Source: a virus
IMG/VR virus record: IMGVR_UViG_3300036780_000414
Location: 1-64,000 of that record
DNA: 64,000 bases
Strand: one strand, 5' to 3'
Positions within the stretch are counted from its first letter, which is position 1, and the number at the start of each line of letters is the position of its first letter. The notes under the pieces were generated by a model. That model was given only the letters and a program-made list of their open reading frames with translations, was not told the origin of the DNA and did no database searches. The translations under genes were made by a program, and so were the position numbers. Positions 8,139 to 61,697 of the stretch are shown here, piece after piece.

Positions 8139-8555
8139 ATGCCGAAGAAGTACGTGGTCACCGGCCAGTACGTGACGTTCAAGACGAACACCACCAGCGG
8201 CCCCGCCGTGCTCGGCTTCTACCGGGGCGCACCCGTGCCGGACGACGCTGAGGAAGCCGCGATCAAGCATCACCTCATGATGGGCCTGATCGAGGAGGTA
8301 CCGGAAAAGGCCATGCCTGCCGCCGCCCCGCTTCCCGGTGACAAGCCGGGCAGCACCGGCCAGGGGGAAACGACGCTCACCGGCAAGGACGCCGAGAAGG
8401 CAGCCAAGGCCGCCGGGGACAACGGCCCGAAGGGGGCAGGCGGCGCTGCTGCCAGCCCGGCCGCGCCCGCGTCCACCACATCACCCGCAACGGCCCCGGC
8501 CAGCCAGGGCGGCAAGCCCGCCACGGGCGGCCCCGCCAAGGGGAAGGCAGGGTAG
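8139..8555 (+). CDS. Hypothetical virion-module protein
   Basis: SD AGGAAGGG; low-complexity Ala/Pro/Gly C-terminus; follows capsid. Confidence 0.65.
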   Translation: MPKKYVVTGQYVTFKTNTTSGPAVLGFYRGAPVPDDAEEAAIKHHLMMGLIEEVPEKAMPAAAPLPGDKPGSTGQGETTLTGKDAEKAAKAAGDNGPKGAGGAAASPAAPASTTSPATAPASQGGKPATGGPAKGKAG

Positions 8556-8558
8556 CCG

Positions 8559-9050
8559 GTGCCGGGTGACTCCTGGGCTCCCACGCTCGGCGACGTAGCC
8601 CGGCACATCCCCCGGCGGACGCGGGACGTGAAGACGCCCGGCAGCGACAAGCTGCTGAACACCTTCACGGCCAGCACCACACCGACAGCTGAGCAGGCGC
8701 AGGCGGTCATCGACCAGGTGGTCGCCACGCTCACGGCGGACGCAGGCACGATCCCCGGCAACGCGGACGTGCAGGTGGCTGCCCGTGCGGCGGCGGAGTG
8801 GCGGGCGGCGGCGGACATCGAGGTCGCCTACCCGAACCGGAACGCGGACGTGCAGGTGTACGCGCAGCTGGACGCGCGGGCCAACGCCGCCTACGCCGTC
8901 CTGCTGCGCGTGCTGGCGGAAGCCGGCGCCGGGCAGGTGGACGTGGTGCCGGCGTGGAACATGCCGCCGTCACCACCGTGGGGTGACCTGTCACCCGGAT
9001 CAGGGGCTGACCCGCTCGAATGGCGGCTCTGGAGGAGGGAGAACTTCTGA
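8559..9050 (+). CDS. Head-to-tail adaptor (probable)
   Basis: Synteny; W.PT..DVA..I..RT N-terminus typical of actinophage adaptors. Confidence 0.65.
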   Translation: MPGDSWAPTLGDVARHIPRRTRDVKTPGSDKLLNTFTASTTPTAEQAQAVIDQVVATLTADAGTIPGNADVQVAARAAAEWRAAADIEVAYPNRNADVQVYAQLDARANAAYAVLLRVLAEAGAGQVDVVPAWNMPPSPPWGDLSPGSGADPLEWRLWRRENF

Positions 9051-9463
9051 TGGCCAACGCAGACGTGACCGTGGTGTGGGACAGCGCCGTGGTGCGGTCA
9101 CTAAGCCAGGACGCGGACGTGCGCGCGCTGATGGACCGGCTGGCGGCGTTCGCGGTGCAGGCGATGAAAAGGCACACGCCGGTTTCGCCGGTCGGGCCGC
9201 TGCACCGTTCCGGCAACTTGCGCAGCAGCGTGCACTCGGAACGGCAGCCGGACGGGACTGTGCTGGTGGGGCCGTCCGCGGATTACGGCAAGTACGTCAA
9301 CGACGGCACTCCCCCGCACCTGATCGAGTCGCACGGTGACTACCCGCTGCGGAACCGGGAGACCGGCCAGGTGTTCGGCCGCGTCGTCCACCACCCCGGC
9401 ACCAGGGCGCAGCCGTTCATCCAGCAGACCGCCGGCGACATCAACGGGATCACGATCTCATGA
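9050..9463 (+). CDS. HK97 gp10-like neck/tail completion protein
   Basis: SGNLRSS, YGKYVNDGT.PH.I, VHHPGTRAQPF motifs. Confidence 0.8.
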   Translation: MANADVTVVWDSAVVRSLSQDADVRALMDRLAAFAVQAMKRHTPVSPVGPLHRSGNLRSSVHSERQPDGTVLVGPSADYGKYVNDGTPPHLIESHGDYPLRNRETGQVFGRVVHHPGTRAQPFIQQTAGDINGITIS

Positions 9464-9879
9464 GCGCCGCTGCTGAGTCAGCTGTCTGCGCGTGGGTCAA
9501 CAGCCGCCCGATCGTGGGTGACGGGAACCCGCTGTCCCGTGGCGCGTACCTCCGCGACCAGGCGAGCCCCGCTGACGGCGCGTACGCGGTGATCGCCCGC
9601 ACCCCGGAAGGCGTCACGCCGTTCGGGGTGGCCGAGGAAGACAGCCTCACCCTGGCGCGCATCCAGGCGCAGGTGTTCGCCGGCGACGAGGACACAGCGG
9701 AACGGGCCGCCGCTGCGCTGCGCAGCGAGTTCGAGAAGCTGACCGGCAAGCCTGAGCCGTGCGGGGACACGGGCGTCACCGTCCTGGTGACCGACAACCG
9801 CAACGGCCCGTTCTTCGTGCCCGGCACAGCGGAAGCGTACTGCTTCCAGGTCGGCGCGGACTTCCTACTGACCGGATGA
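9460..9879 (+). CDS. Tail terminator (probable)
   Basis: Synteny after gp10-like gene; 139 aa with IQAQVFA. Confidence 0.6.
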   Translation: MSAAAESAVCAWVNSRPIVGDGNPLSRGAYLRDQASPADGAYAVIARTPEGVTPFGVAEEDSLTLARIQAQVFAGDEDTAERAAAALRSEFEKLTGKPEPCGDTGVTVLVTDNRNGPFFVPGTAEAYCFQVGADFLLTG

Positions 9880-10268: not shown

Positions 10269-10628
10269 GTGCCTACCAAGAGGACAGCAGACAGCCCCGC
10301 TCCGGATGACGCTCCCGTCCAGGGACCAGGAAACGGAGCTGGCGGGACGGACAGCCCGGAGGACACCAGCGCACCAGGGTCCGTCCCCGCAGCGCCCCCG
10401 CCGCCTGTACGCCCCGCGCCGCCCTACTACATCGCCAGGGAAGCTCTGTTCGTCGGCGGCAACGCCGGCACGATGCCCGTCCGCGCGTTCAACGCCGGCC
10501 AGAGAGTACCAGCCGACCTGGTGGCCCCCAACGGGTGGGCAAGCAAGGTCACCCGTCCCGGCGACACCGATACGCCTGCGCCCGCAGCCACACAGGAAGA
10601 GGACGCCGAACCGGCGGGACAGGAGTAA
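10269..10628 (+). CDS. Hypothetical Pro-rich protein
   Basis: In-frame GTG at 10269 within ORF 9975-10628; fills gap before major tail gene. Confidence 0.5.
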   Translation: MPTKRTADSPAPDDAPVQGPGNGAGGTDSPEDTSAPGSVPAAPPPPVRPAPPYYIAREALFVGGNAGTMPVRAFNAGQRVPADLVAPNGWASKVTRPGDTDTPAPAATQEEDAEPAGQE

Positions 10629-10631
10629 GCG

Positions 10632-11192
10632 ATGACAACGCGCGGCAATCCCGCTGCCCTCGCACTGGGACCGGGCAAGCTCTACATCGGGCCGCTGGGC
10701 ACGACAGAGCCAGCCGACCTGACTACGGACTGGGCGTCGGTGTCAGCGGCATGGGTGCTGCTGGGTTACACAGACACCGGGTCAGAGTTCAAGTACGCGC
10801 TGGCGACCGACCCGGTGGAAGTAGCCGAGGAACTGGACCCGATCAGCAACCAGACCACCGGCCGCACGTCCACCGTGACGTTCGCGCTCGCGGAGATCAC
10901 CGCGACGAACCTCCAGCGGGCCATGAACGGCGGCACCATCACCAGCGGGTCCGGCATCGTCACGTTCGAGCCGCCCGACCTGGGCACCGAAGTGCGGACC
11001 ATGCTCGGCTTCGAGTCTGAGGACGCCACCGAGCGGTGGGTTTACCGGCAGTGCTACCAGACCGGCGACTCAACCATCACCAGGGCCAAGGGCGCGGCCA
11101 AGGCGACTATCTCCTGCGAGTTCACCCTGGAGAAGCCCGCCACCGGCGCGAAGCTCTACAAGGCCATCATGCAGAGCCCGCTGCGGGCCTAG
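10632..11192 (+). CDS. Major tail protein
   Basis: GPGKLYIGPLGT.EP, W..LGYT..G motifs; precedes chaperone and tape measure. Confidence 0.85.
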   Translation: MTTRGNPAALALGPGKLYIGPLGTTEPADLTTDWASVSAAWVLLGYTDTGSEFKYALATDPVEVAEELDPISNQTTGRTSTVTFALAEITATNLQRAMNGGTITSGSGIVTFEPPDLGTEVRTMLGFESEDATERWVYRQCYQTGDSTITRAKGAAKATISCEFTLEKPATGAKLYKAIMQSPLRA

Positions 11193-16245: not shown

Positions 16246-19200
16246 ATGGAAAGCCTGGTCCTCGGTGACATTGAGCTGCTGGGCGGCGGCATCGAGTCCG
16301 TCAACCCGATGTGCGACGGCGCGGTCTTCCGGCTGCTGCCCGGCTTCGACCCCGGCGCCCCGGACCCGACGACCAGTGAGGTCGCGTCGCTGCTGCTGGA
16401 CGGCACCATCAACTACGGCCGCAGGGCGGACAACCGCACGGTGACATTGCCGGTGTGGATCATCGCACCGAGCCGGGACGTGCTGTCCGGTGCGCGTGAG
16501 CACATCCAGCAGGTCATCGACCAGGAGATGTGGGCGCTGACGTGGGCGCGGGAACGTGACCTGGCCGGGGAGCTGCCGGCGCTGCCGATGATCCTCGACT
16601 GCCAGCGGGCGGCGGCAACGCAGGTTGAGGCGGACCTGATCCGCGAGAAGCAGTTCTGCATGAAGCTGACCGTCAGCTTCCCGGCGCTCCCGTACGGCAG
16701 GAGTGACACCCAGCAGCGGCTCCAGTTCGCGAGCCCTGTGCCGTCCGGGCCGCCCGCCCCGCCGTCGCCGGTGCTGATCGACGACTACTCGACTATCAGC
16801 TCCCCGGTCTGCTACCAGTCCACCCGGTGCGTTGTCGGGCCGCACAGCTGCGCGTGGGACCCGGACGGGTTCGGTGACCCCGGCGGGCAGAACAGCCTGT
16901 TCGATTACAGTGCGGTCCTGGCCAACGTCGTCAACCTGGCTGGCATGTCGTCGGTGTCGGTGTACCTGGGGTTCGGGTCACGCTGGTACTGGAACCTGCC
17001 GTACCACGGGCAGCACGTCGCCCGCGTCACCCTCACCTTGACTGACACGTCAGGTAAAACGCTGTCGATGACGCGGAACGATGTCCGGCTGCCGGTCACG
17101 CCGCTGCCGCAGTCGCCGTTCTTCAGCCCGGTCACGATGCGCATCCCGACCACCGACCCGGTGTTCAACTACGGGAACGTAGCCGGGTACGAGCTGACCG
17201 TCTCGAACCATCACCCGTTCGGCCGGCATCACCTGCGGTGGGTGACGCTGTACGTGGACGACCTGACCGCTTACCCGGACTCGCAGACGGTGACACCGGT
17301 CACCAGGGGCGCGGTCTACACGCTGCGCGGCCTCAAGGGGACCGCCCGCGCGCCGATGTCGAGTTCGTTCACCCAGCCGCCGACGCCGGGTACCGCGACT
17401 ACCGTAACGGCGGCGGGCCTCGGCAGTTACACCGCCCCGGCGGGCACCGCATGGCTTGCGGTGCAGGGTGAGGGGTCCGGCGGGCCGGGCGCGTCCTTGA
17501 CGGGTGCCGGGCTGGGTGCCGGCGGCGGCGCGGCTGAGAGCGCACGCGAGGACGTGTTCCCCGCGTCGGCTGGCGATGTCATCCCGTACAACGTGGGGGC
17601 TGGCGGCACGCCCGGCAACGACGGGCAGGCGACGACGTTCGGGCCTGGCCCGGCCGGGCCGCTGGTGCTGACCGCGAACGGCGGGAAGGCGGCCAGCGGG
17701 ACCACGGGCGGCCTCGGCGGCACCGGCTCAACCAACAGCGTGCACTACGACGGCGGGAAAGGCCGGGATGCTACGGGGTCGCTCGGTGCGGGCGGCGGCT
17801 CGTCTGGTGGCACGTCGGGGCCTGGGCAGACGCCGATGGGTACCACGTCGACGAGTTTTACCAGTGCGGGCACCACCAGCTGGACTTCGCCGTTCACCGG
17901 CCTGATCTACGCGGAGGTGTGGGGCTCGGGTGCGGGCGGTGCGACCGGCTACTTCGGCGGTAACGGGCAGGCCGGGTCTGGTGGTGAGTACGCGGCTCAG
18001 TTCGTGCCGGTCACCAAGGGCAGCAACTACGCGGTTGTCGTCGCCGCACCTGGTGCGGGGGCGTCCGGCGGCAACCAGCTGCCCGGCAGCAACGGGAACA
18101 GCTCGTCGTTCACCGCTGACGGCGGCGTGCAGGTCACCGGGCACGGCGGCACCAGGGGCGTGGCCAGTAACTCCTCAGGTAACGGGCCGGCTGGCGGCAC
18201 CGGCTCAGCGAACAGCGTCCACCATGACGGCGGGCGGGGCGGCGGCGCGGAACCGTACGGCGGCGGCGGCGGGTCATCCGGGTCACCGTCAGGTAACGGG
18301 AACAACGGCGACAGTTACGGCAACCCCGGATCGGCGCCGGCTGACGGTGGCGCGGGCGGTGCCGGGTCCGGGCCGAACACCTCCACTCACGGGTCGAACG
18401 GGTCGGCTCCCGGCGGTGGCGGCGGCGGCACGTACTTCAGCACCACGGCGGGTAACGGCGCGGCGGGCAAGGTGCGGCTGTCCGTCCCCGGAGGCACCCC
18501 GGACCAGTTCGGCGCGCCCGCAGTTACGGGCGGCGGCGCGGGCGGGAACGGCGGGGCCACGGCGAACAGCGGTGGCACGGCTGGTGCTCAGCCGGGCGGC
18601 GGCGGCGGCGGCGCGAACAGCACCGGGTCGGCTGAGGTGGGCGGGGACGGCGGGGACGGGAGGCTGGTCATCACCCCCTATGCGCCGGTCGCGTTCAAGT
18701 CGCTGCTGGTGCACCGGCCGCCGAAGGGCAGCTCGAAGCTGTTCCAGCCGCTCGTGTCGGTGGGCGGCGGGGCGGACACGCCGAACGGGGCCACCTGGTA
18801 CACGCTGCCCCAGCCGGTCAGCGGCGTATCCGCCGTGTTCCTCGGCACCTACACGTTCTACCTGATCGCGTCGTCGCTGAACGGGTCCGGTACGCGGACG
18901 GTCACCCTCACGGTGCGGCAGACAGAGTACAGCGGGGGGCCGACGTACAGCATCGCGACGGTGCCGGTGACGTTCTCCCCGGCGCAGCTGACGAACGGGC
19001 TGCTGTGCGCGGGGGTGCTGACGCTGCCGGTGAAGAAAGTCCCGCCGGACAACACGCAGGCGTCATGGGCGGTGTCAGTGACTGACACGAACACGGCAGA
19101 CCGCTGGTATGACTGCATCGCGCTGGACACTCAGGGGCAGACGGCGATCATCAATGAGCCGAGCACCGGATTCCAGACGTACTTCCTCGACGCACCGGAC

Positions 19201-30864: not shown

Positions 30865-31228
30865 CTTGCTTGTCCCTCTCTCTTTCCGGTTCGCATGCGC
30901 ACCAGCCCATAGTGTGGGCGAGTGACCGCAGGTGCTGCTCCCGCCACCGCTCGTCGCGGTACCGCTCCCACACCGTCCAGTCCCACAGCCCGGCGCTGAG
31001 CACGGTGCGGGTCACCTGGTACGGGCGCCTGTGGGAGTAGGGCCACTCGGCTGAGGCCCGTGCCGCCTCTGCGGTGCAGTGCTCGCAGGTCATCGTCGTG
31101 CCGACCCGGCGCAGGCACGCAGGGTCACCCATCGACGCGGGCATCTGCGGGTGAAGCATCACGACGTGCTTGCAGTCGAGGACCGCCATCCAGTCCAGCA
31201 GCTCCTCACCGAGCATGTTGAGCACCAT
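30857..31228 (-). CDS. Hypothetical Cys-containing protein
   Basis: First gene after promoter at 31285. Confidence 0.55.
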   Translation of the reverse strand: MVLNMLGEELLDWMAVLDCKHVVMLHPQMPASMGDPACLRRVGTTMTCEHCTAEAARASAEWPYSHRRPYQVTRTVLSAGLWDWTVWERYRDERWREQHLRSLAHTMGWCACEPERERDKQDA

Positions 31229-31284
31229 CAGCCCTCTCCCTCTCTCGGGGTTACCAGGCTCTTTCAGCGGGGTCTCACAACCCC

Positions 31285-31310
31285 AGTATACCGCACACAT
31301 GTTAGGTGTA
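31285..31310 (-). promoter_or_regulatory. Leftward promoter/operator unit
   Basis: - strand TACACCT-AACATGTG-TGCGG-TATACT. Confidence 0.75.
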
Positions 31311-31727
31311 GGGGGGCAACAGGTTAGCGGGTATCGCTGCCGCCGCGTACCCGGCCACGGCGAGGCGCGCGTGCACCCACGCCAGGTCGTTGAGGGTCAC
31401 CGCAGACTCGTAGCAGCTGTCCAGAATCCGGTCCAGCGTCCGGTAGTACGTGAAGGTACCCAGGTAGTCATCCGGCGGGATGGCATCGGCGGGCACGTTC
31501 CCCAGCAGCAGGACACGGTTCGGGCTGCCCTGCTGCTGCGCGTACACGTCCCCGGTGTCCTGCACGTAGGAGACCCGCCACTCAGGCCAGTGATGGTCTC
31601 GGAGCCGCCAGTGGACACCGTAAGCAGCTTCCGGGCTGAACATCCGGCGGATGTCGTCCATCCAGAAGTCATCCAGGTTCTCGAACAGCACCCGGTGCGG
31701 CCCCGGCCGGTCCAGCTCAGCGGTCAT
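31302..31727 (-). CDS. Hypothetical protein
   Basis: YGVHWR...WRVSYVQDTGDVYA segment; coding-like. Confidence 0.6.
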   Translation of the reverse strand: MTAELDRPGPHRVLFENLDDFWMDDIRRMFSPEAAYGVHWRLRDHHWPEWRVSYVQDTGDVYAQQQGSPNRVLLLGNVPADAIPPDDYLGTFTYYRTLDRILDSCYESAVTLNDLAWVHARLAVAGYAAAAIPANLLPPYT

Positions 31728-32082
31728 CGTCTTCACCGGGCCTGCGGAGGCGCGGGACCGGCTTGAACGGCTCATTCGCCATGAGGTGGTCGATGGCCTC
31801 GTTCCTGGTTCGTGAGTCATCGCCGGGCAGCACAGCTACGGTGATCTTGTCCCGTGGCAGGCCGGTCACCTGCATCGCGTAGGTGATGGTCGCTGCCGCC
31901 TGCTCCGGGGCGGGCGGCCACGTGCTCGCGTCGACATAGACGGTGGCCTCGACCAGCTGGAGCGTCCGGCTGCGGGATTGCCGGCGGTACAGCGGCTGTA
32001 TCCCCTCCACGTGCAGCAGGCCAAGGGTGATCTGTTCCACGACAGGATGTCCGATCGCCTGGGTGACGGGGTAGTCGGTCAT
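31717..32082 (-). CDS. Hypothetical protein
   Basis: GAGAGAGG SD. Confidence 0.6.
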   Translation of the reverse strand: MTDYPVTQAIGHPVVEQITLGLLHVEGIQPLYRRQSRSRTLQLVEATVYVDASTWPPAPEQAAATITYAMQVTGLPRDKITVAVLPGDDSRTRNEAIDHLMANEPFKPVPRLRRPGEDDDR

Positions 32083-32117
32083 AGCTTTTCCTCTCTCGGT
32101 GCCGCGCAGCTGCGCGG

Positions 32118-32378
32118 CTATTCCCTGATGGCCTGGTCCACGGGCACCAGGCCCGCCAGCCGCACGATGTCCGCGGACACCTTGCCGCCGGACAGCGCGT
32201 AGTACGCCTCCACGAATGAGCTGAACGCCGCCGGGTCATGCGGCTGGGCGTCACGGAACCGCTGCGGCAGCTCCCCGCCGCACGCGGTCACCAGGCGGTT
32301 GTAGCTGTCTACCAGCTGCCGCTGCCATTCACTGGCCAGCTTGATCACGATCATGTGCTGTTCCGGGTCGGCGCTCAT
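32118..32378 (-). CDS. Hypothetical protein
   Basis: Coupled ORF. Confidence 0.55.
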   Translation of the reverse strand: MSADPEQHMIVIKLASEWQRQLVDSYNRLVTACGGELPQRFRDAQPHDPAAFSSFVEAYYALSGGKVSADIVRLAGLVPVDQAIRE

Positions 32379-32626
32379 CCGGCTGGCTCCCATCCGCCGT
32401 CCCAGCCTGGCGTCATCGCGGGCTCAGTCGGCACGACGTACCCGGATGACATGATGCCGGCGGCGTCGATGCTGATAATCCGGGTGTCGCTGTCATAGAG
32501 CACCAGCACGTCATCGTCGCCGGCGCTGCCCTCGAACACGTGGCAGGGGCCGGGTGAGTCAACGATCTCGTCGTCCTCCACCCGTGACCTGATGTCGTCC
32601 ACGGCTGCCTGCTGCTGCGGTGTCAT
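32375..32626 (-). CDS. Acidic hypothetical protein
   Basis: AGGAGG SD. Confidence 0.6.
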   Translation of the reverse strand: MTPQQQAAVDDIRSRVEDDEIVDSPGPCHVFEGSAGDDDVLVLYDSDTRIISIDAAGIMSSGYVVPTEPAMTPGWDGGWEPAG

Positions 32627-33195
32627 CCCTGTTCCTCCTTCGGCTCATGCAGCACTACCGATGCGGTCGCGGTCGGCATCGGCACGTTCCTGCACGCGTA
32701 GCTGTTGTCGTCGTCCACCCACTCGTCCCCGTGCGGGCCTGGGCGCCAGTGCAGTCCCGCGCCGCAGTGCACGCAGGTACGGCCGTTCCGGCTGGCTCCC
32801 ATCCGCCGTCTGGCGTCTTCAGCCCGCCGCGCTGCGCACCACAGGCAGTCGGGCTCAGTACCGAAGTGCTCCTCCCCGTGGGTGAACTCGTCCCGGCCGA
32901 ACTCGCGCCCGTGTTCCCACACCTCCGCGTAGATCTCCGCGAACGTCATGCCGTCCTTATTAGCCAGCGCCTCAGTGACCGCGTGCTGCCGGGCTGCGGC
33001 CTCGATGCTCAGCTCACTGCCGCCGCTGTCACCTGCCGCATGGCTGTGGTCCTGGTCGCCGGGGAACCTCTCGTGCTTCGCGTCGTGCGCCCACACCAGG
33101 TCCTCAGCAGGCCGCCCGTCCGGGTGCGCGATGCTGGTCAGCCTGACGCCGGGGTGCCTCGCGGCCAGGTGCGCGCGCAGCTCGCCCTCGTTCAC
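32623..33195 (-). CDS. Hypothetical protein with Cys pairs
   Basis: Coupled ORF; CLWC, CVHC. Confidence 0.6.
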   Translation of the reverse strand: MNEGELRAHLAARHPGVRLTSIAHPDGRPAEDLVWAHDAKHERFPGDQDHSHAAGDSGGSELSIEAAARQHAVTEALANKDGMTFAEIYAEVWEHGREFGRDEFTHGEEHFGTEPDCLWCAARRAEDARRRMGASRNGRTCVHCGAGLHWRPGPHGDEWVDDDNSYACRNVPMPTATASVVLHEPKEEQG

Positions 33196-34481
33196 GATCC
33201 TGTTCCCTCACTGGTCGCAGCCGCTGCGACGGGAGGCGTCGCGATGGTCGCAGGTGCGACGCTGCCGGTCTCAGCCTGCGTATCCGTGCGACTCTTAGCG
33301 TCGCGGGCGCGTATGTCGTGGATACGCTGCGGCTTCAGGGCTGGGTAGCCGTGGTCGCGGAGGTGTCGCAGTGCGACCAGGTTTGAGTCCGCTGCGTCGG
33401 GGACGTTCGCGAGTACCCAGCGGATTGCGTCGGACTGAGACATCTGCGTAAGGTCCGGCGGCGCGGGTGCGTCATCCCGGTCCTCGTCGTGCGTCTCCTC
33501 GTCCTCATCCTGGTCGCGGTCAGTGTCGCGGCGGGTCGCACTGCCGCCGCCGTGTGCGTCACTATCGGTCGCAGCGGGTGCAAGCTGAGACGCGGCGAGT
33601 GCCTTCGCGAGTCGCAGCTTGATCGCCTCACGCCACGCGTCGAACGCTTCCCCTGGCTGGCCGAGGCCCGGCACGAACACCAGCAGCCCCAGCCGGGGCA
33701 GCGGCTCAACCCGCTCACGGCTCTTGATCCCGTGCTGCGCGCGGCGTGCCTCTCTGCGGGCGGCAGAGAGCACCAGGTGAACGATTGTGTACGCGGCAAG
33801 GCTCATGACGGGGAAGAACACTTCGGCCGTCACGTTGCCGCTCTGGAGCGCGTAGCGCCAGTTAATCCAGGCGCCTGTTGCCACCAGGCCAGCGGACACC
33901 ACCCGGAAGCCGAAACCGGACTCGCCCTTGTCGATCTGCATCAGGGCAAGGAGGGTGCAGGCCAGGGCGGCAACATCGAGTGCGACCGGCACCATCAGGG
34001 CGCGGACCCACAGCCAGTGCAGGTCATTCAGTGCCCACTCGTACTCGCCGGTCCAGCTCATGTACCCGACGCAGAACAGTACGGCAGCTAGCGCCGCGTA
34101 TGCGGCGATGCGGCGGCCGGTAGTCGCAAACCCGACGCGCTCATAATGGCGGCCGGTCGCATGCGACACCAGCTCGCGTGCCCGCTTACGCAGTGCGTCC
34201 CTGGCTGAGTCACGCTGGTCGCGGCGGGCGGCCTTGCGTGCGTCACGTGAGACCCTGGGCTGCGTCGCCTTGCGACCGTGGGGCGTCGCAGGTGTCGCGG
34301 GCTGAGTTGCCGGTGACTCGGGTTGCGTAGCCGGTGCGACCGGCTGCGTCTCCTCTTGAGTACCCGGTGCGCCGGTTGCGTCAGCTGGTGGTGTCGCACC
34401 TGGGGCCGGATGGTCGCTGTCTTCCTCACGGTGTCGCAGCTGCGTCCACGGTGGTCGCAGCTCCGTCGGCTTGAGTCGCAT
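33192..34481 (-). CDS. DUF2637-like membrane protein with C-terminal helical (possible DNA-binding) domain
   Basis: About four TM segments with ALMVPVALDVAALAC motif; C-terminal MSQSDAIRWVL...LRDHGY. Confidence 0.7.
   Translation of the reverse strand: MRLKPTELRPPWTQLRHREEDSDHPAPGATPPADATGAPGTQEETQPVAPATQPESPATQPATPATPHGRKATQPRVSRDARKAARRDQRDSARDALRKRARELVSHATGRHYERVGFATTGRRIAAYAALAAVLFCVGYMSWTGEYEWALNDLHWLWVRALMVPVALDVAALACTLLALMQIDKGESGFGFRVVSAGLVATGAWINWRYALQSGNVTAEVFFPVMSLAAYTIVHLVLSAARREARRAQHGIKSRERVEPLPRLGLLVFVPGLGQPGEAFDAWREAIKLRLAKALAASQLAPAATDSDAHGGGSATRRDTDRDQDEDEETHDEDRDDAPAPPDLTQMSQSDAIRWVLANVPDAADSNLVALRHLRDHGYPALKPQRIHDIRARDAKSRTDTQAETGSVAPATIATPPVAAAATSEGTGS
33214..34480. repeat. 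Dispersed TGCGAC/GTCGCA hexamer array inside the DUF2637 gene
   Basis: 10 exact copies in 33214-33616, 10 in 34123-34480, 1 at 33981, plus TGCGTC/TGAGTC/TGAGAC variants. Confidence 0.8.
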
Positions 34482-34487
34482 GACTAC

Positions 34488-34892
34488 TCACCCCTCCCAG
34501 GCCACAGGCTCAGCGGTGATCGTCGTCCCCGGCCCGCGCACCCAGCGGGCCGCCGGCTTAACCTGGCGGCCGTCGATGCTCACCACGACACCGCCGGACT
34601 GGTACGCCTCGTACGCCCACAGGCCCGGCTCCTCGAACGTCACCAGGCGGGCGGTGACGAGTGCCTTGACCGGCAGGCTGTGCGGTGGGACCGCCATCCG
34701 CAGGTCACGGACGACGCTGTAGTGCGCGCCTGCCTTCTGGAGCATCGCGTCAAGGTGGTTCTTCGTCTGGGCGACCGCGACCAGGTACGCCTGGCCGATG
34801 GTCCTGTCGCGGGTCAGCCACTCGTGCGGGACGATCGTCATGCCGCGTGAGACGTACAGCTTCATCGGTGCCCTCTCTCCCTGGGTAGTCAT
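34488..34892 (-). CDS. Hypothetical protein
   Basis: Coding-like ORF; alternative start at 34865 after GAGAGAGGG. Confidence 0.6.
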   Translation of the reverse strand: MTTQGERAPMKLYVSRGMTIVPHEWLTRDRTIGQAYLVAVAQTKNHLDAMLQKAGAHYSVVRDLRMAVPPHSLPVKALVTARLVTFEEPGLWAYEAYQSGGVVVSIDGRQVKPAARWVRGPGTTITAEPVAWEG

Positions 34893-34916
34893 CGGTTGGC
34901 GTCTCCTGTCTCTCGG

Positions 34917-35189
34917 TTACTCACTGGTTTCGGTCAGCTTGACCTGGAAGGCGCGGGTAGTCCCGTTGGTGAGCTGCACGCGGATCACGGTCACCGTGGC
35001 GCTGACGGCCTCACCGGTGACCTCACTGACCTCGTCCGGCTGGCCGGTCAGCTCCGGGCGGGCCTGGCCGGTGACGAGTGCGTGCTGCACGGCGGCGGCG
35101 ATCATCCGCTTCACGTCGTCGTCCAGCTCGTCCAGCTGCGGCAGGTGATTGAACCGCTTATCCGGGTTAGCCCTGTACGGTCGCGCCAT
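34917..35189 (-). CDS. Hypothetical protein
   Basis: GAGGGGG SD. Confidence 0.6.
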   Translation of the reverse strand: MARPYRANPDKRFNHLPQLDELDDDVKRMIAAAVQHALVTGQARPELTGQPDEVSEVTGEAVSATVTVIRVQLTNGTTRAFQVKLTETSE

Positions 35190-35478
35190 CCGGTCCCCCC
35201 TCTTCTGCGGCCTGCGGGCTCTCGGGGAGCAGCTCAGCGCGGATCTTGCTGGTGCGCGTGAAGTAGCCGGCGGTGTCCTCGGGCGGCATGTCGGCTACCG
35301 CTGCCTCCCACTCGGAGCGCACTTGGTCAAGGTCACGCTGGAGCTGGAGGGTGCTGCGGTACAGCTCGACGGCCCTGGCCCCCTTCGCGCTCCACGTGTG
35401 CCTGGCGACGCCCCTCAGCGGGCGACCCTCAGCAGGTGCGGTTTCCTCCTGGGTTGGGGTGTCCTCGGTGCCTGTCAT
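35167..35478 (-). CDS. Hypothetical protein
   Basis: GGAGG SD. Confidence 0.6.
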   Translation of the reverse strand: MTGTEDTPTQEETAPAEGRPLRGVARHTWSAKGARAVELYRSTLQLQRDLDQVRSEWEAAVADMPPEDTAGYFTRTSKIRAELLPESPQAAEEGGPDGATVQG

Positions 35479-35490
35479 GCGGTGATCCTC

Positions 35491-35913
35491 CTAGTTGGCC
35501 CGCCGGATCTTCATCCGGTAGTCAGCGACGATGGCGTCCACCGTCTCGGTGGTGGTGCCATACTCGATCCCGGTCCGCGCCGGGGTCCACCCGTGCATCA
35601 GCACGGCCTCAGCGACCGCTGTCAGGTAGGTGGCGGTGTGGTTCTCCCAGCCGGGGTCTACCTTGGCGGCGACCGTGCGCAGCGGCATGCGGCGCATCCA
35701 GTCGGTGAGCTTGTTCGCGTCGTAGCCGGTGCCGTCGCCGTCGAGCACGTCACCCAGGGTGGTTAGCATCCGGTCGGCGCTGGCGGTGGCACCGCGCTCA
35801 GGCAGCTGATGCTGGGCGGCCAGTGCGCGTACCCGGCTTACCTGCTCAGCTGTCGGCCTGGTGCTGGCGTCGTAGTGGCGGGTGATCGACCCCCGCGCGC
35901 TGCGGCGCGGCAC
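35491..35913 (-). CDS. Hypothetical protein
   Basis: GAGGG SD, GTG start. Confidence 0.55.
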   Translation of the reverse strand: MPRRSARGSITRHYDASTRPTAEQVSRVRALAAQHQLPERGATASADRMLTTLGDVLDGDGTGYDANKLTDWMRRMPLRTVAAKVDPGWENHTATYLTAVAEAVLMHGWTPARTGIEYGTTTETVDAIVADYRMKIRRAN

Positions 35914-35969
35914 TACCGGTCACCCTCACGGGTTATCGCCATCATGTTCGGTTCCCTCTCTCGCCCGTT

Positions 35970-35995
35970 ACGCTACCACGCACACGTGGGTTTTA
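35970..35995 (-). promoter_or_regulatory. Leftward promoter/operator unit (variant)
   Basis: - strand TAAAACC-CACGTGTG-CGTGG-TAGCGT. Confidence 0.6.
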
Positions 35996-36005
35996 GCGGG
36001 CTTAC

Positions 36006-36446
36006 TCACTGTGCGGCCAGCAGGTCGTTGCTCTCGTCATGCGGCTGACATCCGCATGACAGCCGCACCCAGTAGCAGGAACCGCCTGCGAAGCCGGTGT
36101 AGCTGCCCCAGTCCATGACGTTGACCTGCCCGTGCTTCGGGCACTCGTCCTCGTCCTCGTTGTCGTCGGTCCAGTCGTGCCAGTCGGCGGCGTCCAGGCC
36201 GAGCGCGGCGGGGCTGATCACCTGGTAACCCTGGCAGCCGATCACGACTGCGCCGTTGGCGACGACGTGCCGCCTGGTGCCGGTGACCACGACGACGTAG
36301 CTATCGGTCACCGGGCTGCCGTCAGCGCGCACCAGCTCCTCGCACTCGGGGCAGGTGCTGGTGCGCCACCGGCCGATCACGGTCAGGTCTGCGCTGAGCG
36401 CGGCGTTCAGGTAGGCGGCCTGGTCGGTGGTCTTGTAAGGCTTCAT
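36006..36446 (-). CDS. Hypothetical Cys-rich protein
   Basis: GAGAGAGG SD; CPEC, CPKH, LSCGC. Confidence 0.65.
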   Translation of the reverse strand: MKPYKTTDQAAYLNAALSADLTVIGRWRTSTCPECEELVRADGSPVTDSYVVVVTGTRRHVVANGAVVIGCQGYQVISPAALGLDAADWHDWTDDNEDEDECPKHGQVNVMDWGSYTGFAGGSCYWVRLSCGCQPHDESNDLLAAQ

Positions 36447-46554: not shown

Positions 46555-47090
46555 TACGCTGTCCCTCTCTCGGTGTCGAGCTGCTGGCCGGTGCGTGACT
46601 CGGGGCACTGGTAGCAGCGGTAGGTGGCGTCCGGGTGGTGGCCGCCGCTGCTGACCAGCTCCCAGCGGTGCGGTTCGGCGCTGGTGCCGTGGGCGGGTGT
46701 CCAGGTGCAGGTGGCGTACCGGGTCCAGTGGACGAAATGGCTGCTGGCCCCGGTGTTGTGCGCGTGCTGCATCGCGTACGGGAGGACATGATGGTGGGTG
46801 GTCATGTGGTCGAGCCACAGCGGCTCATCCCACGCTGCGGTCAGGTCGCATGCGGCCTCAGCGTCGTCGTGGTCAACCTCGATCGCGCTGTACCCCTGGC
46901 TGCGCAGGTGCGCGGTCAGCTGCCCGGCGGTGCCGGTGAACGTCTCATCGGGGCCGGCTCCCGCGTGGTTGGCGTGGCTCTCGGTGCTGACGCAGGCCAG
47001 CCCCTCGACGCCGTGCGTGACGTGCGTGTCGTAGTACCAGGTGCGCGTGCCTGCTGGCACCTGGTGCTTGAACTTGAACTGCTCGCTCAT
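46554..47090 (-). CDS. His-rich hypothetical protein
   Basis: First gene after promoter at 47114; GAGAGAGGG SD. Confidence 0.65.
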   Translation of the reverse strand: MSEQFKFKHQVPAGTRTWYYDTHVTHGVEGLACVSTESHANHAGAGPDETFTGTAGQLTAHLRSQGYSAIEVDHDDAEAACDLTAAWDEPLWLDHMTTHHHVLPYAMQHAHNTGASSHFVHWTRYATCTWTPAHGTSAEPHRWELVSSGGHHPDATYRCYQCPESRTGQQLDTERGTA

Positions 47091-48919
47091 CGCCTCACCC
47101 TCTCTCTAACATCAGTGTACCACACACATGTAAGCAGTAGCGGGTGGCCGGGCGGTTCCTTTGAGCACCTGGTCACCCTGCACGGCGCCGCCCGGTAGCT
47201 GAACGCCTGCCCGTGGCCCGGTAACGACCTGACGGCAGGTGCCGCCTGACTCGCGAGGAAGAACACGTCAGCGGCCCGTATCCCCGTGCCGTCCTCGGTC
47301 ACCAGGTTGTTGCTCCGCAAGGTTGACAGGTAAGAGCCGAAGGTGCTGCCCACCGGGTTGATGCCGGCGAGGGTCGCCAGGTCGGAACGGGAAACTGGTT
47401 CCGGGTAGCGTTCCAGCAGGCAATCGAGCATCCCCCGCGCCCCGGCCTTGAGGACGCTGCGCCAGCGGGCGCGGATCTCCTCGGGCCTCGGCGGCGCGGC
47501 GTCCGCTGCGGCACCTGCGGCCGCCAGCCCGTCAGCCGTGATCACCACGAACACGCCGTCCTGGACGACCAAGCCGTTCATCCGCAGCGCCGAGAGATAG
47601 GAGCCGAAGGTGCTGCCGGACCCCTTGATGCCGGCAAGGGCGGCGAGCTGGCCACGGGTCATCTTCAGCGGGTGATGCCGTGCAAGCTGTTCGAGCATGT
47701 CCCGCGCGCCTGCCTTCAGCGCCCTCGAACCGCCGGCCGGCACCGGCCGGGCCACTTCACCATGCGACGGCTCCACAGCCTGGCGCTGCGGCTGCACGGT
47801 TACCGGCGGCTTGGCGGCCCGGCTGAGCGCCAGTTCGACGCTCCCCGCAATATCCCGCAGGCCAGTGATGGCCTGCTCAAGCGCAGCGATGTCACCGGCT
47901 GTCAGGACGGGCACCTCAACGCGCTCCGGTTCGCGGTGGCTAGCCTGGGCCAGCTGCGCGCGCAGCGTAGCGACTTCCCGGCGGAGGCTAGCAGCCGGGT
48001 CGTCGGGGACGCCGCCCTGTTGCAGCAGCACCGCCATCCGCTCAAGGTCTGCGGGGTTCACCGGCGCGAACCGGCGCGGCGTGACAGCCTGCTCGCCGAC
48101 CTTCGGCGTAGCTGAGGAGTCGAACGTGCTGCGAGGGCGGACCTGGATCTTCCGCATGACTTCCAGCCAGCCCGGCGACCACACCCACGCTGTTCCTACG
48201 GGCAGCGACGGCAGGGAGTCCTTCAGCTCCCTCGCGTCCTCGTCGCTGGCGTGCAGCCGGATCCACTCGTCTATCGCGGCGACGTCGAGCTTGCCGAGCA
48301 GCCGCATCGCGATCAGTACCTCCACCTGCGAGCGGATCGCGGAGTGCAGCTGAGCAGGGCGCAGGGTGATGCTCGTTGAGCCGATGCCGGGCTTGCGGCC
48401 GCGCAGCACGATGTCCTCATAGGCGCCGAGCAGCCGGGGGTCACGCTCACCGGCCTGGCTGGCGAAGCGGTCTGCCTCGTCTATGACCAGGTGCAGCGGT
48501 TCCCGGTTCGCGCGGAACAGGCGCTCCATGAAATCGGTGGCGAACTTCCGCTGCTGCGTCTTCGACATCAGGAACATGTCCAGGACGACAGGTAGCCGCT
48601 CAGATGCCACCAGGTCCGCGACGGCTGTTCCCGACCTCGGGTCAAGTGGCAAGTCGGCGTGCTCACCGCCGAGGATCGTCACCGGCAGCCCTGGCCCCTG
48701 CCCGTCAGCGGAGGACCGCAGGCCCCACCAGGAGCCCATCGGGTCAAGCACGCACGCGGGCAGGCCCGCGCCGATCAGCTCCTCAACCAGGACTGACGCA
48801 GTAGCGGTCTTCCCGCTGCCGCGCTTGCCGAAGATCAGGAACGTCTCGGTTACCGCGTCGATCGGCAATGCGAGGTCGCCTGCGATCCGCAGGTCACTAG
48901 CTGCGGGCGCGGCTGGCAT
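47087..48919 (-). CDS. HerA/FtsK-family (DUF87) ATPase with tandem C-terminal winged-helix domains
   Basis: GKRGSGKT Walker A, VLDPMG, LVIDEAD Walker B, RGRK.GIG; duplicated LKAGAR.ML...GSTFGSYLS.LR.N.LV. Confidence 0.82.
   Translation of the reverse strand: MPAAPAASDLRIAGDLALPIDAVTETFLIFGKRGSGKTATASVLVEELIGAGLPACVLDPMGSWWGLRSSADGQGPGLPVTILGGEHADLPLDPRSGTAVADLVASERLPVVLDMFLMSKTQQRKFATDFMERLFRANREPLHLVIDEADRFASQAGERDPRLLGAYEDIVLRGRKPGIGSTSITLRPAQLHSAIRSQVEVLIAMRLLGKLDVAAIDEWIRLHASDEDARELKDSLPSLPVGTAWVWSPGWLEVMRKIQVRPRSTFDSSATPKVGEQAVTPRRFAPVNPADLERMAVLLQQGGVPDDPAASLRREVATLRAQLAQASHREPERVEVPVLTAGDIAALEQAITGLRDIAGSVELALSRAAKPPVTVQPQRQAVEPSHGEVARPVPAGGSRALKAGARDMLEQLARHHPLKMTRGQLAALAGIKGSGSTFGSYLSALRMNGLVVQDGVFVVITADGLAAAGAAADAAPPRPEEIRARWRSVLKAGARGMLDCLLERYPEPVSRSDLATLAGINPVGSTFGSYLSTLRSNNLVTEDGTGIRAADVFFLASQAAPAVRSLPGHGQAFSYRAAPCRVTRCSKEPPGHPLLLTCVWYTDVRERVRR
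47114..47139 (-). promoter_or_regulatory. Leftward promoter/operator unit
   Basis: - strand TACTGCT-TACATGTG-TGTGG-TACACT. Confidence 0.75.
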
Positions 48920-49091
48920 CTGCTTCCTCCTCAACAGCCCTGGCAACGGCCTCCTGCTCGTTGCAGTACACGGTCACCAGGTCAACGGCGACTTCACTCA
49001 TGCTCTTGCCGTTCCTCGCGGTGGCGGCCTTGAACCGCCTGCGCAGGTCGTCTGGGAAGCTACTGATCTCCAGCTTGTTCGGCCTGTCCAT
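48897..49091 (-). CDS. Ribbon-helix-helix (Arc/ParG-like) DNA-binding protein
   Basis: LEISSFPDDLRRRFKAATARNGKSMSEVAVDLV. Confidence 0.72.
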   Translation of the reverse strand: MDRPNKLEISSFPDDLRRRFKAATARNGKSMSEVAVDLVTVYCNEQEAVARAVEEEADASRARS

Positions 49092-60512: not shown

Positions 60513-60794
60513 ATGACGACTCTGCGCGTGCACCCGGACTACGCGGACCCTGACTACAGCCTGGAGCTTGACCGGAACCCGGGGCTTCCCCGGCAGCTGG
60601 TCTCAGACCGGGCGCTGACCCTCACCGAGTACCGGCTGGCCTACTACGTCTTCTCGCACCAGGCGACCCCGCCGCTGCCGACAGCCGCGCAGATCGCCGC
60701 GCGCTGGTGGGTGAGCGTCACCGAGGCCGAGGCGCAGGCGGCACTCGACAAGCTGGCAGCGCGCGGCTACCTGGTCGCAGGTGAGCAGCGGTGA
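60513..60794 (+). CDS. Small HTH/wHTH protein
   Basis: LVSDRALT...RL...S, TAAQIA...ALDKLAARGYL. Confidence 0.62.
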   Translation: MTTLRVHPDYADPDYSLELDRNPGLPRQLVSDRALTLTEYRLAYYVFSHQATPPLPTAAQIAARWWVSVTEAEAQAALDKLAARGYLVAGEQR

Positions 60795-61681: not shown

Positions 61682-61697
61682 GAGAGGGAGAAAGACG

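Follow-up and report, generated by a model that had tools for sequence, protein, structure and literature searches.

The window analysed here is a 64,000-nucleotide stretch (positions 1 to 64,000) of the virus record IMGVR_UViG_3300036780_000414, from a soil actinophage, which comprises 82,795 bp and is 86% complete. The stretch is present in one soil-metagenome DNA sequencing run, which may be where it came from, with no RNA run listed. The locus under study is a membrane protein gene dense in the hexamer TGCGAC and its complement GTCGCA. Its features, together with two further genes that enter the interpretation, are the following:

33192..34481, minus strand: DUF2637 membrane protein gene, 429 aa (open reading frame and Pfam PF10935)
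34491..34498, minus strand: ribosome-binding site GGGAGGGG, 9 nt before the ATG at 34481
34116..34481, no strand assigned: upstream half of the array, 16 TGCG[AT]C in both orientations, in the codons for aa 1-122
34156-34167: 12-bp palindrome GTCGCATGCGAC in the upstream half of the array
33696..34115, minus strand: site-poor transmembrane (TM) core, aa 123-262, with only two TGCG[AT]C, at 33981 and 34068
33195..33695, no strand assigned: downstream half of the array, 15 TGCG[AT]C, in the codons for aa 263-429
33365-33377: near-palindrome GTCGCAGTGCGAC in the downstream half of the array
33267..33455, minus strand: C-terminal three-helix domain, candidate DNA-binding module, aa ~343-405
35491..35913, minus strand: conserved 140-aa protein with an HTH-like C-terminus, alternative candidate binder
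47087..48946, minus strand: HerA/FtsK-superfamily ATPase, 619 aa, possible DNA pump and candidate partner

The gene belongs to the DUF2637 family, as the original prediction had it: Pfam PF10935 matches aa 160-270 at E 4.3e-11 (43.4 bits, the cut-off being 22.8), and phrog_10376 matches the 429-aa protein at 1.9e-10. NCBIfam holds no family for this protein or for nine neighbours. The protein starts with a basic, disordered part that includes a long helix. Three to four hydrophobic helices follow, then an acidic linker, a three-helix domain and, at the very end, a short tail. Hydrophobic segments (Kyte-Doolittle at least 1.6) lie at aa 125-143, 157-180 and 221-239, with a weaker fourth at ~190-211, and the multi-pass membrane core is supported both by hydropathy and by helices in the AF2 model. 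The full-length model has a mean pLDDT of 55, and the Foldseek search made with it was uninformative. The ribosome-binding site GGGAGGGG lies inside the end of the upstream gene, the stop codon of which is at 34488-34490, and it favours the start that gives 429 aa, where the database call (P0001) has 325 aa. The N-terminus MRLxxxxLR is common to P0002-P0004. The GC3 of the gene is 0.75, against 0.81-0.94 for the other GC3-selected open reading frames of the window. Searches with the gene by blastn and tblastn against 50,697 GenBank phage records gave no match, and two pattern scans of GTDB genome contigs with the alignments A1 and A2 gave no relative.

All 21 positions listed beforehand for TGCGAC/GTCGCA (20 named in series, and 33981) are exact. 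The window contains 56 copies, of which 21 fall within the 1.29-kb gene and 35 are spread across the other 62.7 kb; in the whole record the gene holds 21 of 71 copies, and from base composition 0.68 per kb would be expected with both orientations counted. When the gene is compared with the remainder of the record in an unbiased, strand-symmetric ranking of k-mers, GTCGCA/TGCGAC comes out on top (21 copies where 0.80 are expected, Poisson p 8e-23) and GACGCA/TGCGTC takes second place (12 where 0.58 are expected, p 1.6e-12), for a total of 33 TGCG[AT]C sites in the gene: 21 A-type and 12 T-type. A genome-wide scan in 600-bp windows ranks the two halves of the gene first and second among all hexamer clusters, making this the top local hexamer cluster of the record. 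The densest 400-bp windows of the gene hold 16 and 14 TGCG[AT]C sites; the best one outside it holds 3, and there is no second cluster genome-wide. In the remaining 81.5 kb the 50 TGCGAC copies amount to neither depletion nor enrichment. The one-off variants described earlier fare unequally. TGCGTC is strongly enriched, as the ranking shows, while TGAGAC (4 against 0.26 expected) and TGAGTC (3 against 0.29) are enriched only weakly. Further enriched single-base variants are TGCGTA (4 against 0.20) and CGCGAC (7 against 1.84); most of the others tested in the gene show no enrichment.

The array is under selection at the DNA level, because its excess survives three kinds of shuffle, its codon choice is unusual and GC3 drops in the parts of the gene that carry it. 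Permuting synonymous codons within the gene gives a mean of 2.3 TGCGAC and a maximum of 9, redrawing codons from the phage's own usage a mean of 1.4 and a maximum of 8, and shuffling codon order a mean of 1.2 and a maximum of 6, each over 5000 shuffles and each against the 21 observed. For TGCG[AT]C, synonymous shuffling yields a mean of 7.3 and a maximum of 15 in 3000 shuffles, against 33 observed. Asp-Ala pairs are spelt GACGCA in 7 of 9 cases in the gene and in 4 of 124 across 84 other phage open reading frames; in the homologous loci L001 and L002 the count is 8 of 13 each. GCA is a rare codon, yet it is the one picked after GAC in those 7 of 9 cases. In all four phage genes that we compared, the array parts have a GC3 of 0.67-0.80 and the core has one of 0.83-0.92. 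The sites occupy five frame/orientation classes: TGCGAC occurs 13 times on the sense strand (five in frame 1, eight in frame 2), and GTCGCA eight times (five in frame 0, two in frame 1, one in frame 2). The classes, the shuffle excess and the GACGCA choice bear out the claim that this is a DNA-level pattern and not a peptide repeat.

The sites crowd the regions that encode the termini and spare the TM core, as had been noticed: 16, 2 and 15 TGCG[AT]C fall in the codons for aa 1-122, 123-262 and 263-429. The upstream half has 43.7 sites per kb at a GC3 of 0.67, the TM-coding core 4.8 per kb at 0.83, and the downstream half 29.9 per kb at 0.75. The head-to-head pairs reported at 34156 and 33365 are both present. 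The spacing is irregular and the orientation free, and the hexamer is a bare word: its flanks are not conserved, which fits one small recognition helix per site. The array parts encode low-complexity sequence rich in Ala, Asp, Thr and Arg.

The array is conserved among related phages, with changed words. Each of the three other complete phage homologues compared at the DNA level, representing about two independent lineages, has an array of its own, and the words differ at letters 5-6: TGCGTC in two (L001, L002) and TGCGAG in one (L008). The homologue at L003 is truncated and was left out of this tally. There are 17 TGCGTC in L001 and 18-19 in L002, both with 0 TGCGAC, and 22 TGCGAG in L008 against 0.15 expected. 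Together with the window gene, four of four complete genes carry a word-specific array that survives shuffling, placed in the N- and C-terminal coding parts; the site gap over the TM core is also seen in L001 and L002 and is weaker in L008. In whole records, 22 of the 30 TGCGAG copies of G001 fall in the one 1-kb bin of the gene and 18 of the 36 TGCGTC copies of G002 in its two 1-kb bins, and neither record shows cross-enrichment of the other lineage's word. At three aligned positions an A-type site of the window gene corresponds to a T-type one in L001 and L002. Between L001 and L002, 10 of 17 sites are retained, and identity is 87.8% at site bases and 75.3% at other non-core bases (Fisher p 0.007). 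Judging from these alignments, sites have changed at their own positions and turn over. In one homologue, P0022, the linker contains tandem peptide repeats. A metagenome locus scan returned L002 and the truncated L003 only, and scanning viral contigs with single proteins (P0017, P0016) added no further locus.

The expectation that DUF2637 occurs on actinomycete mobile elements is borne out by plasmids of these bacteria, which carry genes annotated as DUF2637. None of three plasmid DUF2637 genes has an in-gene word array: the idea that homologues bear their own k-mer arrays thus holds for the phages (3 of 3) and fails for the plasmids (0 of 3), and does not extend to DUF2637 as a whole. Since the plasmid proteins end in a similar tail, such a tail does not depend on an array inside its gene. 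These relatives lie in transfer-type operons, not in replication operons. On two of the three plasmids (L004, L005) the DUF2637 gene is followed by a small open reading frame and then by a FtsK/HerA-like ATPase gene, with Pfam matches below the cut-off (PF01580 at 1e-3 and 9.5e-3). On plasmid pPR2, a cluster of 14 GTCCGG copies within 600 bp, just downstream of the ATPase gene, has an array-like look.

DNA binding had been suggested for the C-terminal helical domain, and structure prediction for the last ~90 residues yields a confident three-helix domain: the AF2 model of aa 331-429 has a mean pLDDT of 79.5, with blocks over model residues 11-60 at 89-94. The modelled tail weakly resembles HTH and winged-helix DNA-binding domains, which make up almost all of its best structural neighbours in VIA-align (best Z 5.5); they include ArgR (rmsd 1.5 A over 45 residues), Fur/Nur/Zur, WhiA and Myb, at Z values of 4-5.5 that lie below VIA-align's own trust level for helical domains. 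Foldseek with the tail returned nothing at E up to 0.001 in PDB or BFVD, a PDB profile search a single row at E 1.3, and a Pfam scan at E up to 5 chance-level rows only. The domain is conserved in 26 relatives and also exists as a stand-alone protein. Its last helix bears the family motif QR[IV]xD[IV]xRRD, and residue x of QR[IV]xD[IV] is H, T or N, differing between lineages with different words. This co-variation spans three words in about three lineages, L001 and L002 being close kin; with few lineages, close kinship and many differing residues, it links no residue to a base.

Two other gene products could also handle the sites. The 140-aa protein is present in all four related loci (L001, L002, L003 and L014) and has no Pfam, PHROG or NCBIfam match; its C-terminal HTH-like stretch hardly changes between lineages whose words differ. 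The HerA-like ATPase, 12.6 kb from the array, matches Pfam DUF87 at 3.5e-6 and HerA-type helicases in PDB at 5e-7 to 4e-3, its atlas neighbours are DUF87/HerA_C clusters, mostly viral, and it has a homologue in G001. The centromere proposed by the original prediction found no support from a partner ATPase: the 86%-complete record has no FtsK_SpoIIIE (PF01580) partner ATPase and no ParA-type AAA_31 (PF13614), an absence that at this completeness is not proof. A ParABS system would differ from the locus in the same respect, the single ParB_N-like match being sub-threshold (25 against 26.3 bits) and lying inside a deazaguanine operon. We found no tyrosine or serine integrase and no tRNA in the phage. 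Three other roles for the array were dropped. For a pac site, the gene lies outside the packaging module, with TerS at 81.5 kb and the head genes at the window start; for a tie to the deazaguanine operon, a modification of the whole genome would not account for one local cluster; for a restriction-site effect, the word is not depleted elsewhere in the genome.

We propose that the array is a set of selected cis-acting docking sites, that their likeliest reader is the protein's own three-helix tail, and that the two would tether phage DNA to the membrane; the binding is what we infer, and we regard the reading as evenly poised between right and wrong. Since related phages do likewise with slightly different words, docking sites for membrane tethering are the most likely content of the gene. 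The sites would be read by a sequence-specific module spanning about six base pairs and would have been written into the least constrained coding parts, namely the disordered N-terminus, the acidic linker and the tail. The protein would enter the membrane through its three to four helices, leaving the tail on a flexible linker of ~80 residues, from which it could grip irregularly spaced hexamers in either orientation. Through many contacts, each with a single site and weak by itself, the phage genome may then be held firmly at the membrane by one locus. Sites and reader in one gene would stay linked, and could therefore change together, as TGCGTC, TGCGAC and TGCGAG by lineage. The tether might serve to position phage DNA for replication, to transport it along or between hyphal compartments, or to secure its inheritance. 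Reader identity, multivalency and purpose are the parts of this proposal that we infer.

Several observations count against reading by the protein's own tail. The window gene mixes two words; plasmid DUF2637 proteins have similar tails encoded by arrayless genes; the shared TGCG core could suit an invariant reader protein; and the 140-aa neighbour, the HerA-like ATPase and host proteins are other candidate readers. In favour of the tail, its last helix differs between the word lineages and the HTH-like stretch of the 140-aa neighbour does not.

The sites might instead form a clt- or centromere-like locus read by another phage protein (the HerA-like ATPase, acting as TraB does at clt, or the 140-aa neighbour), the DUF2637 gene being the host of the sites or a membrane partner. 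The order of genes on two of the three plasmids, with the ATPase two genes after DUF2637 on sub-cut-off Pfam evidence, speaks for this, as do the HerA-like ATPase encoded by both the phage and G001, the array-like GTCCGG cluster of pPR2 beside its ATPase gene, and the presence of the 140-aa neighbour in all four related loci. However, a PF01580 match is absent from the phage, its ATPase is far from the array, the HTH-like stretch of the neighbour hardly varies although the word changes, and in four of four phages the array lies inside the DUF2637 gene and not beside an ATPase gene; we consider this rather unlikely. A replication origin, with iteron-like sites in the gene of the origin-binding protein, would have a precedent in lambda gene O. 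There, four phased ~19-bp iterons and an AT-rich stretch are bound by a soluble initiator, the sites lie in the linker-coding part of their own binder's gene, and sites and domain differ together between phages. The phage array is dense and the sole such cluster of its genome, it occupies stretches that encode linkers in the gene of a protein with a DNA-binding-like domain, and no other origin was identified in the phage. An origin is nevertheless very unlikely: the array consists of ~33 bare, unphased hexamers in both orientations, not of iterons of 15 bp or more, and sits in the gene of a membrane protein; an AT-rich stretch for unwinding is absent (no 40 bp within 33.0-34.7 kb have a GC content below 52.5%); the DnaB-like helicase gene (61698-63029) is 27 kb away, beside the lowest-GC stretch of the window; and the plasmid relatives are in transfer-type operons.

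A host protein could be the reader, for instance a regulator that is titrated or recruited, a nucleoid protein or a defence nuclease, with the words reflecting different hosts. Many host factors recognise such short bare words, and the words do differ among phages from different samples. This leaves unexplained why the array keeps its place in one gene in four phages and why sites change in place alongside a linked tail; moreover, TGCGAC is neither depleted nor enriched elsewhere in the genome. We give the idea only a slight chance. Close to refuted is the view that the array has no DNA-level function and is a by-product of a low-complexity peptide, codon habits or local mutation bias. The composition of the peptide in the array parts and the tandem peptide repeats in the P0022 linker would fit it. 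Against it stand the five frame/orientation classes, the excess that outlasts synonymous shuffles, GCA after GAC at a frequency far from that of other genes, the different words of homologous genes, and site bases better conserved than their surroundings.

As the original prediction stated for SpdA and TraB, proteins of Streptomyces plasmids bind short repeats: TraB and SpdA2 do so, SpdA2 inside its own gene (PMC4170104, in the part cited here). TraB binds 8-bp repeats (TRS) at clt of Streptomyces conjugative plasmids, according to the same part of that paper. Both clusters are made of a short word on an actinomycete mobile element, and in clt/TraB, as that part describes it, the repeats are read by the DNA-binding domain of a membrane-associated protein and mark DNA for membrane handling, which is what we propose here. 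The phage differs in having a 6-bp word in ~33 copies across 1.3 kb of coding sequence, and a DUF2637 membrane protein in place of a FtsK/TraB (PF01580) translocase. SpdA2 of pIJ101, also from a Streptomyces mobile element, binds sps inside its own coding region and is tied to stable inheritance (Thoma et al. 2014, PMC4170104, cited part); the sites of the phage likewise lie within the gene of the candidate binder. Unlike the array, sps is described there as a palindrome in one or two copies, and SpdA2 as small and soluble.

SpdB2 of pSVH1, an integral membrane protein, has a length of ~409 aa, four predicted helices, a helical part at the N-terminus and a domain at the C-terminus; it forms oligomers and binds dsDNA, reportedly non-specifically, and its authors suggest that homologues on actinophages might aid the spread of phage DNA (Thoma et al. 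2015, PMC4447253, in the part cited here). The order of parts resembles that of the phage protein, which we set beside SpdB2 by description only, and the cited part describes no site array for SpdB2. From an SpdB2-type tra/spd operon the phage differs in having no TraB translocase, its HerA-like ATPase being remote from the array. pSVH1 SpdB2 is not among the 60 listed of 72 plasmid hits to the DUF2637 query. The open reading frames of pIJ101, SpdA2 and SpdB included, gave no hit with profiles A1 and A2 at E up to 10, and pIJ101 SpdB has no Pfam family and is not DUF2637. Nor does phiC31, named in the cited part of PMC4447253 as having an SpdB2 homologue, match PF10935, A1 or A2.

Outside the actinomycetes, the Bacillus phage phi29 has a membrane protein, p16.7, whose soluble domain holds phage DNA at the membrane; it binds without sequence specificity and is not known to have a site array. 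Neither sequence nor fold gives evidence of kinship between p16.7 and the DUF2637 protein. The titles and abstracts searched yielded nothing on DUF2637 function, and a search for these hexamers in Streptomyces gave only unrelated work among the matches listed; hexamer arrays inside DUF2637 genes are unreported in the literature searched.

A bolder version of the tethering proposal, which we think unlikely, treats the gene as an 'address label plus membrane receptor' that is self-contained and co-evolves. The protein would be inserted in the membrane while its own gene is still being transcribed, and would therefore load in cis onto that gene's array. The genome might then be passed to a DNA translocase at the membrane, be it the HerA-like ATPase of the phage or one belonging to the host or a resident plasmid, so that naked phage DNA could cross hyphal compartments without virions. 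TGCGAC, TGCGTC and TGCGAG would record a stepwise change of specificity that prevents cross-reaction of related phages.

Overall, the original prediction is partly supported: the DNA-level pattern, the family, the arrays of phage homologues and the tail fold stood, the DUF2637-wide generalisation failed, and the centromere gained no support from a partner ATPase. The locus also carries a lesson for annotation: strong cis-elements can hide in coding sequence, lowering GC3 and shaping the amino acids of disordered regions. TGCGAC, TGCGTC and TGCGAG, with their in-place changes, form a natural series for the joint change of specificity of a small DNA-binding domain and its sites. Should the array be read by the tail, the gene would be a one-gene module that fixes the phage genome to the membrane, and its specificity would be readable straight from the DNA, since each lineage spells its own word dozens of times. 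This would give DUF2637, which is widespread on actinomycete plasmids and phages, its first testable function, and would open a route to how the DNA of mobile elements is positioned and moved in mycelial bacteria.

The gene of a DUF2637 membrane protein carries a dense array of two hexamers, TGCGAC (A-type) and TGCGTC (T-type), within its own coding sequence. The gene and the other features considered here are the following.

33192-34481 (-): DUF2637 gene, 429 aa, above the curated Pfam cut-off for DUF2637 and matching phrog_10376
31285, 35970, 37142, 42265, 47114 (-): promoter-like element, ~ACATGTGnGnGGTAnAnTG after TAC
35491-35913: gene of a 140-aa neighbour with an HTH-like C-terminus, present in all four related loci
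47087-48946 (-): gene of a HerA/FtsK-superfamily ATPase (DUF87), 619 aa, with a homologue in the related phage record G001
60794-61698: gap of ~900 bp with a single 57-aa ORF, preceding the DnaB-like helicase gene
61698-63029 (+): DnaB-like helicase gene

All 21 positions listed for TGCGAC/GTCGCA in the original prediction are exact, and the gene holds 21 of the 71 copies in the whole record. An unbiased k-mer ranking places this word first (21 vs 0.80 expected) and TGCGTC/GACGCA second (12 vs 0.58), and a whole-genome scan for local clusters of any hexamer ranks the two halves of the gene 1 and 2. TGCG[AT]C forms no second cluster in the genome: 400-bp windows reach 16 and 14 sites in the gene and never exceed 3 elsewhere. 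The word comprises the hexamer alone, its flanking positions being unconserved; a modest excess among 21 further variants is confined to TGAGAC, TGAGTC, TGCGTA and CGCGAC.

The array is selected at the level of DNA, and an artefact of peptide sequence or codon usage is all but excluded as its explanation. The enrichment, which the original prediction had proposed to compare with codon shuffles, survives 5000 shuffles of each type: the 21 observed TGCGAC copies compare with a mean of 2.3 and a maximum of 9 when synonymous codons are permuted within the gene, 1.4 and 8 when codons are redrawn from phage usage, and 1.2 and 6 when codon order is shuffled. For TGCG[AT]C, 33 sites are observed vs a maximum of 15 in 3000 shuffles. 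The sites occupy five classes of frame and orientation. The clearest single figure is the spelling of Asp-Ala pairs, which is GACGCA in 7 of 9 cases in the gene vs 4 of 124 in 84 other phage ORFs; the Ala codon of this spelling is uncommon in the phage. The GC3 of the gene is 0.75 (N-terminal part 0.67, transmembrane-coding core 0.83, C-terminal part 0.75) vs 0.81-0.94 in the other window ORFs passing the GC3 filter.

The public gene call P0001 begins at an internal GTG (aa 105) and yields 325 aa, so that 312 bp with 13 TGCG[AT]C sites would count as 'non-coding'. We prefer the 429-aa form, because GGGAGGGG provides a ribosome-binding site 9 nt upstream of its ATG, the stop of the upstream gene lies 6 nt ahead of this ATG, and the N-terminal MRLxxxxLR is common to the 429-aa protein and its homologues P0002-P0004. 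NCBIfam has no family for the protein. The promoter-like element noticed earlier was seen at all five of the listed places examined, and its copies at 35970 and 31285 flank the gene block with the DUF2637 gene. A sigma-70 consensus scan of 31000-36200 returned 0 promoters and 0 terminators.

A word-index search recovered nine homologues with 50-78% identity (alignment A1), and a profile search of 1.84 billion representatives recovered 133 at E <=1e-3, 18 of them at <=1e-30. Four relatives, all syntenic phages, were compared at the DNA level: L001 and L008 from IMG/VR contigs (L008 and L014 are one record), and L002 and the truncated L003 from metagenomes.

Dominant words in the complete genes of related phages
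L001: TGCGTC, 17 copies in the gene; TGCGAC 0; best synonymous shuffle 12
L002: TGCGTC, 18-19 copies in the gene; TGCGAC 0; best synonymous shuffle 13
L008: TGCGAG (mostly TGCGAGC), 22 copies in the gene vs 0.15 expected; best synonymous shuffle 9; TGCGA 35 in all, with TGCGAC 5-6, TGCGAA 6 and TGCGAT 3

The array is thus conserved with changed words. The suggestion that each homologue carries its own array holds for all three complete phage genes (L001, L002 and L008) and fails for DUF2637 homologues generally: none of three plasmid genes (pPR2, a Streptomyces sp. plasmid, pNO33) has a comparable array, and the trait therefore belongs to this phage subfamily, not to the whole of DUF2637. The gene's 1-kb bin holds 22 of the 30 TGCGAG copies of G001, and its two bins hold 18 of the 36 TGCGTC copies of the phage record G002; enrichment for another lineage's word is absent in every record compared. 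The genes of the window, L001 and L002 carry their sites in the sequence coding for the N- and C-terminal parts, with few in that for the membrane core; L008 shows this gap less clearly, its core having 14 sites per kb. In P0022, known as a protein only, the linker contains tandem peptide repeats (TQDTHALT..., about six times), which would fit growth of an array by tandem duplication.

Mapping of the sites onto a protein alignment of four genes showed that words change in place. At three places an A-type site in the window faces a T-type site in L001 and L002, with the alignment columns coinciding or adjacent (SHAT vs ADAAT, ALRHL vs VTHLR, SRT vs ART), which looks like word change through point mutation at existing sites. 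L001 and L002 (76% protein identity) retain 10 of 17 sites in place; outside the core, identity is 87.8% at site bases (n=90) vs 75.3% at others (n=582; Fisher p 0.007), and total site number is steady at 17-19. The sites are thus under purifying selection, with turnover at a maintained number.

In the full-length AF2 model, which is poor (mean pLDDT 55), a long helix begins at aa 79, the membrane core is helical and the acidic linker is disordered. When modelled by itself from an alignment of 27 sequences, the C-terminal tail (aa 331-429) reaches a mean pLDDT of 79.5, with 89-94 in 10-residue blocks over model residues 11-60, and has helices at model residues 19-29, 31-35, 37-46 and 54-74. 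Most relatives end in this domain, which is also found as a free-standing 94-aa protein (P0108) and as the N-terminal part of a different protein (P0137). Foldseek found no match to the tail in PDB or BFVD at E <=0.001. An exhaustive VIA-align search gave a best Z of 5.5, where according to the tool's note a value below 8 may reflect merely a common arrangement; its top rows (Z <=5.5) include many DNA-binding three-helix and winged-helix domains (GT-1, Nur/Fur/Zur, WhiA, Myb), among them ArgR, which superposes with an rmsd of 1.5 A over 45 residues. Because of the low Z and the lack of a Foldseek match, we grade the tail as tentatively HTH-like, a candidate DNA-binding domain. The last tail helix has the family motif QR[IV]xD[IV]xRRD, with H at x in the window protein, T in both L001 and L002, and N in L008; the variation of x alongside the word is suggestive, and many other residues also differ.

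The record is a single contig of 82,795 bp, of which the window is the first 64 kb (GC ~68%); CheckV completeness is 86%, and one soil-metagenome sequencing run contains the stretch. Gene order follows that of a tailed actinophage: plus-strand head and tail genes extend to ~23 kb and are followed by long blocks of small leftward genes. RecE- and RecT-like proteins, HNH endonucleases, a HerA-like ATPase, a DnaB-like helicase and a small terminase are encoded. Although classed as a provirus by IMG/VR, this 86%-complete record yielded no match for a tyrosine or serine integrase, a ParA-type ATPase, a tRNA or PF01580. Its terminase genes lie at both contig ends. CCGCCG/CGGCGG clusters (20-27 per 600 bp) at syntenic tail-gene positions (window ~18101-18700, G001 ~25801, G002 ~23001) are probably low-complexity Pro/Gly/Ala-rich coding sequence.

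Other readers of the array, and another role for it, have to be weighed against the tail. The 140-aa neighbour could read the common TGCG core, but its HTH-like C-terminus hardly varies between lineages whose words differ, leaving letters 5-6 unexplained; a 134-aa neighbour is absent from L014. The 619-aa ATPase, part of which bears a large-terminase-like PHROGs label, is a candidate reader and gains relevance because two of the three plasmids have an FtsK/HerA-like ATPase gene two positions after the DUF2637 gene, with a small ORF in between. In pPR2 (NC_019291.1) this ATPase gene spans 8514-9731, and the 600 bp shortly downstream of it (~10401-11000) contain 14 copies of GTCCGG/CCGGAC, in what looks like a clt-type repeat cluster; GGGGAA/TTCCCC reaches 12-13 per 600 bp at each end of this record, linear according to PLSDB. 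The reading of the array as a replication origin is weak, with no phased long iterons, no AT-rich stretch and the helicase gene 27 kb distant. The gap at 60794-61698 is a candidate origin or regulatory region, and GC reaches its window minimum (0.65) in the 60-62 kb bin.

Lambda O/ori and phi29 p16.7 offer parallels. By analogy, the gene with its array resembles a blend of TraB/clt, SpdA2 and SpdB2, rather than a demonstrated member of any. TraB is described as assembling on 8-bp repeats at clt, and SpdA2 as binding a palindrome within its own coding region with an effect on plasmid stability (Thoma et al. 2014, PMC4170104). SpdB2 is described as an oligomeric four-helix membrane protein with non-specific dsDNA binding and pore formation, and the authors suggest that actinophage homologues might aid the spread of phage DNA (Thoma et al. 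2015, PMC4447253). The likeness to pSVH1 SpdB2 is drawn from its published description. The SpdB of pIJ101 shows no relation to the DUF2637 protein by Pfam or by profiles A1 and A2, and phiC31 has no match to the family. A literature search found no title or abstract bearing the term DUF2637, and nothing relevant to the hexamer words among the matches listed.

The best-supported reading is that the array has been selected as a set of docking sites, recognised by a small domain with sequence specificity; the tail of the protein itself is the most likely such domain. Carried on a flexible linker, this predicted reader would tether the phage genome to the membrane through the array at this locus; we infer the identity of the reader, its multivalent binding and the purpose of the attachment. 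The window contributes words that form a close series (TGCGAC, TGCGTC and TGCGAG), evidence that sites change in place, and the clear lack of an array in three plasmid DUF2637 genes.
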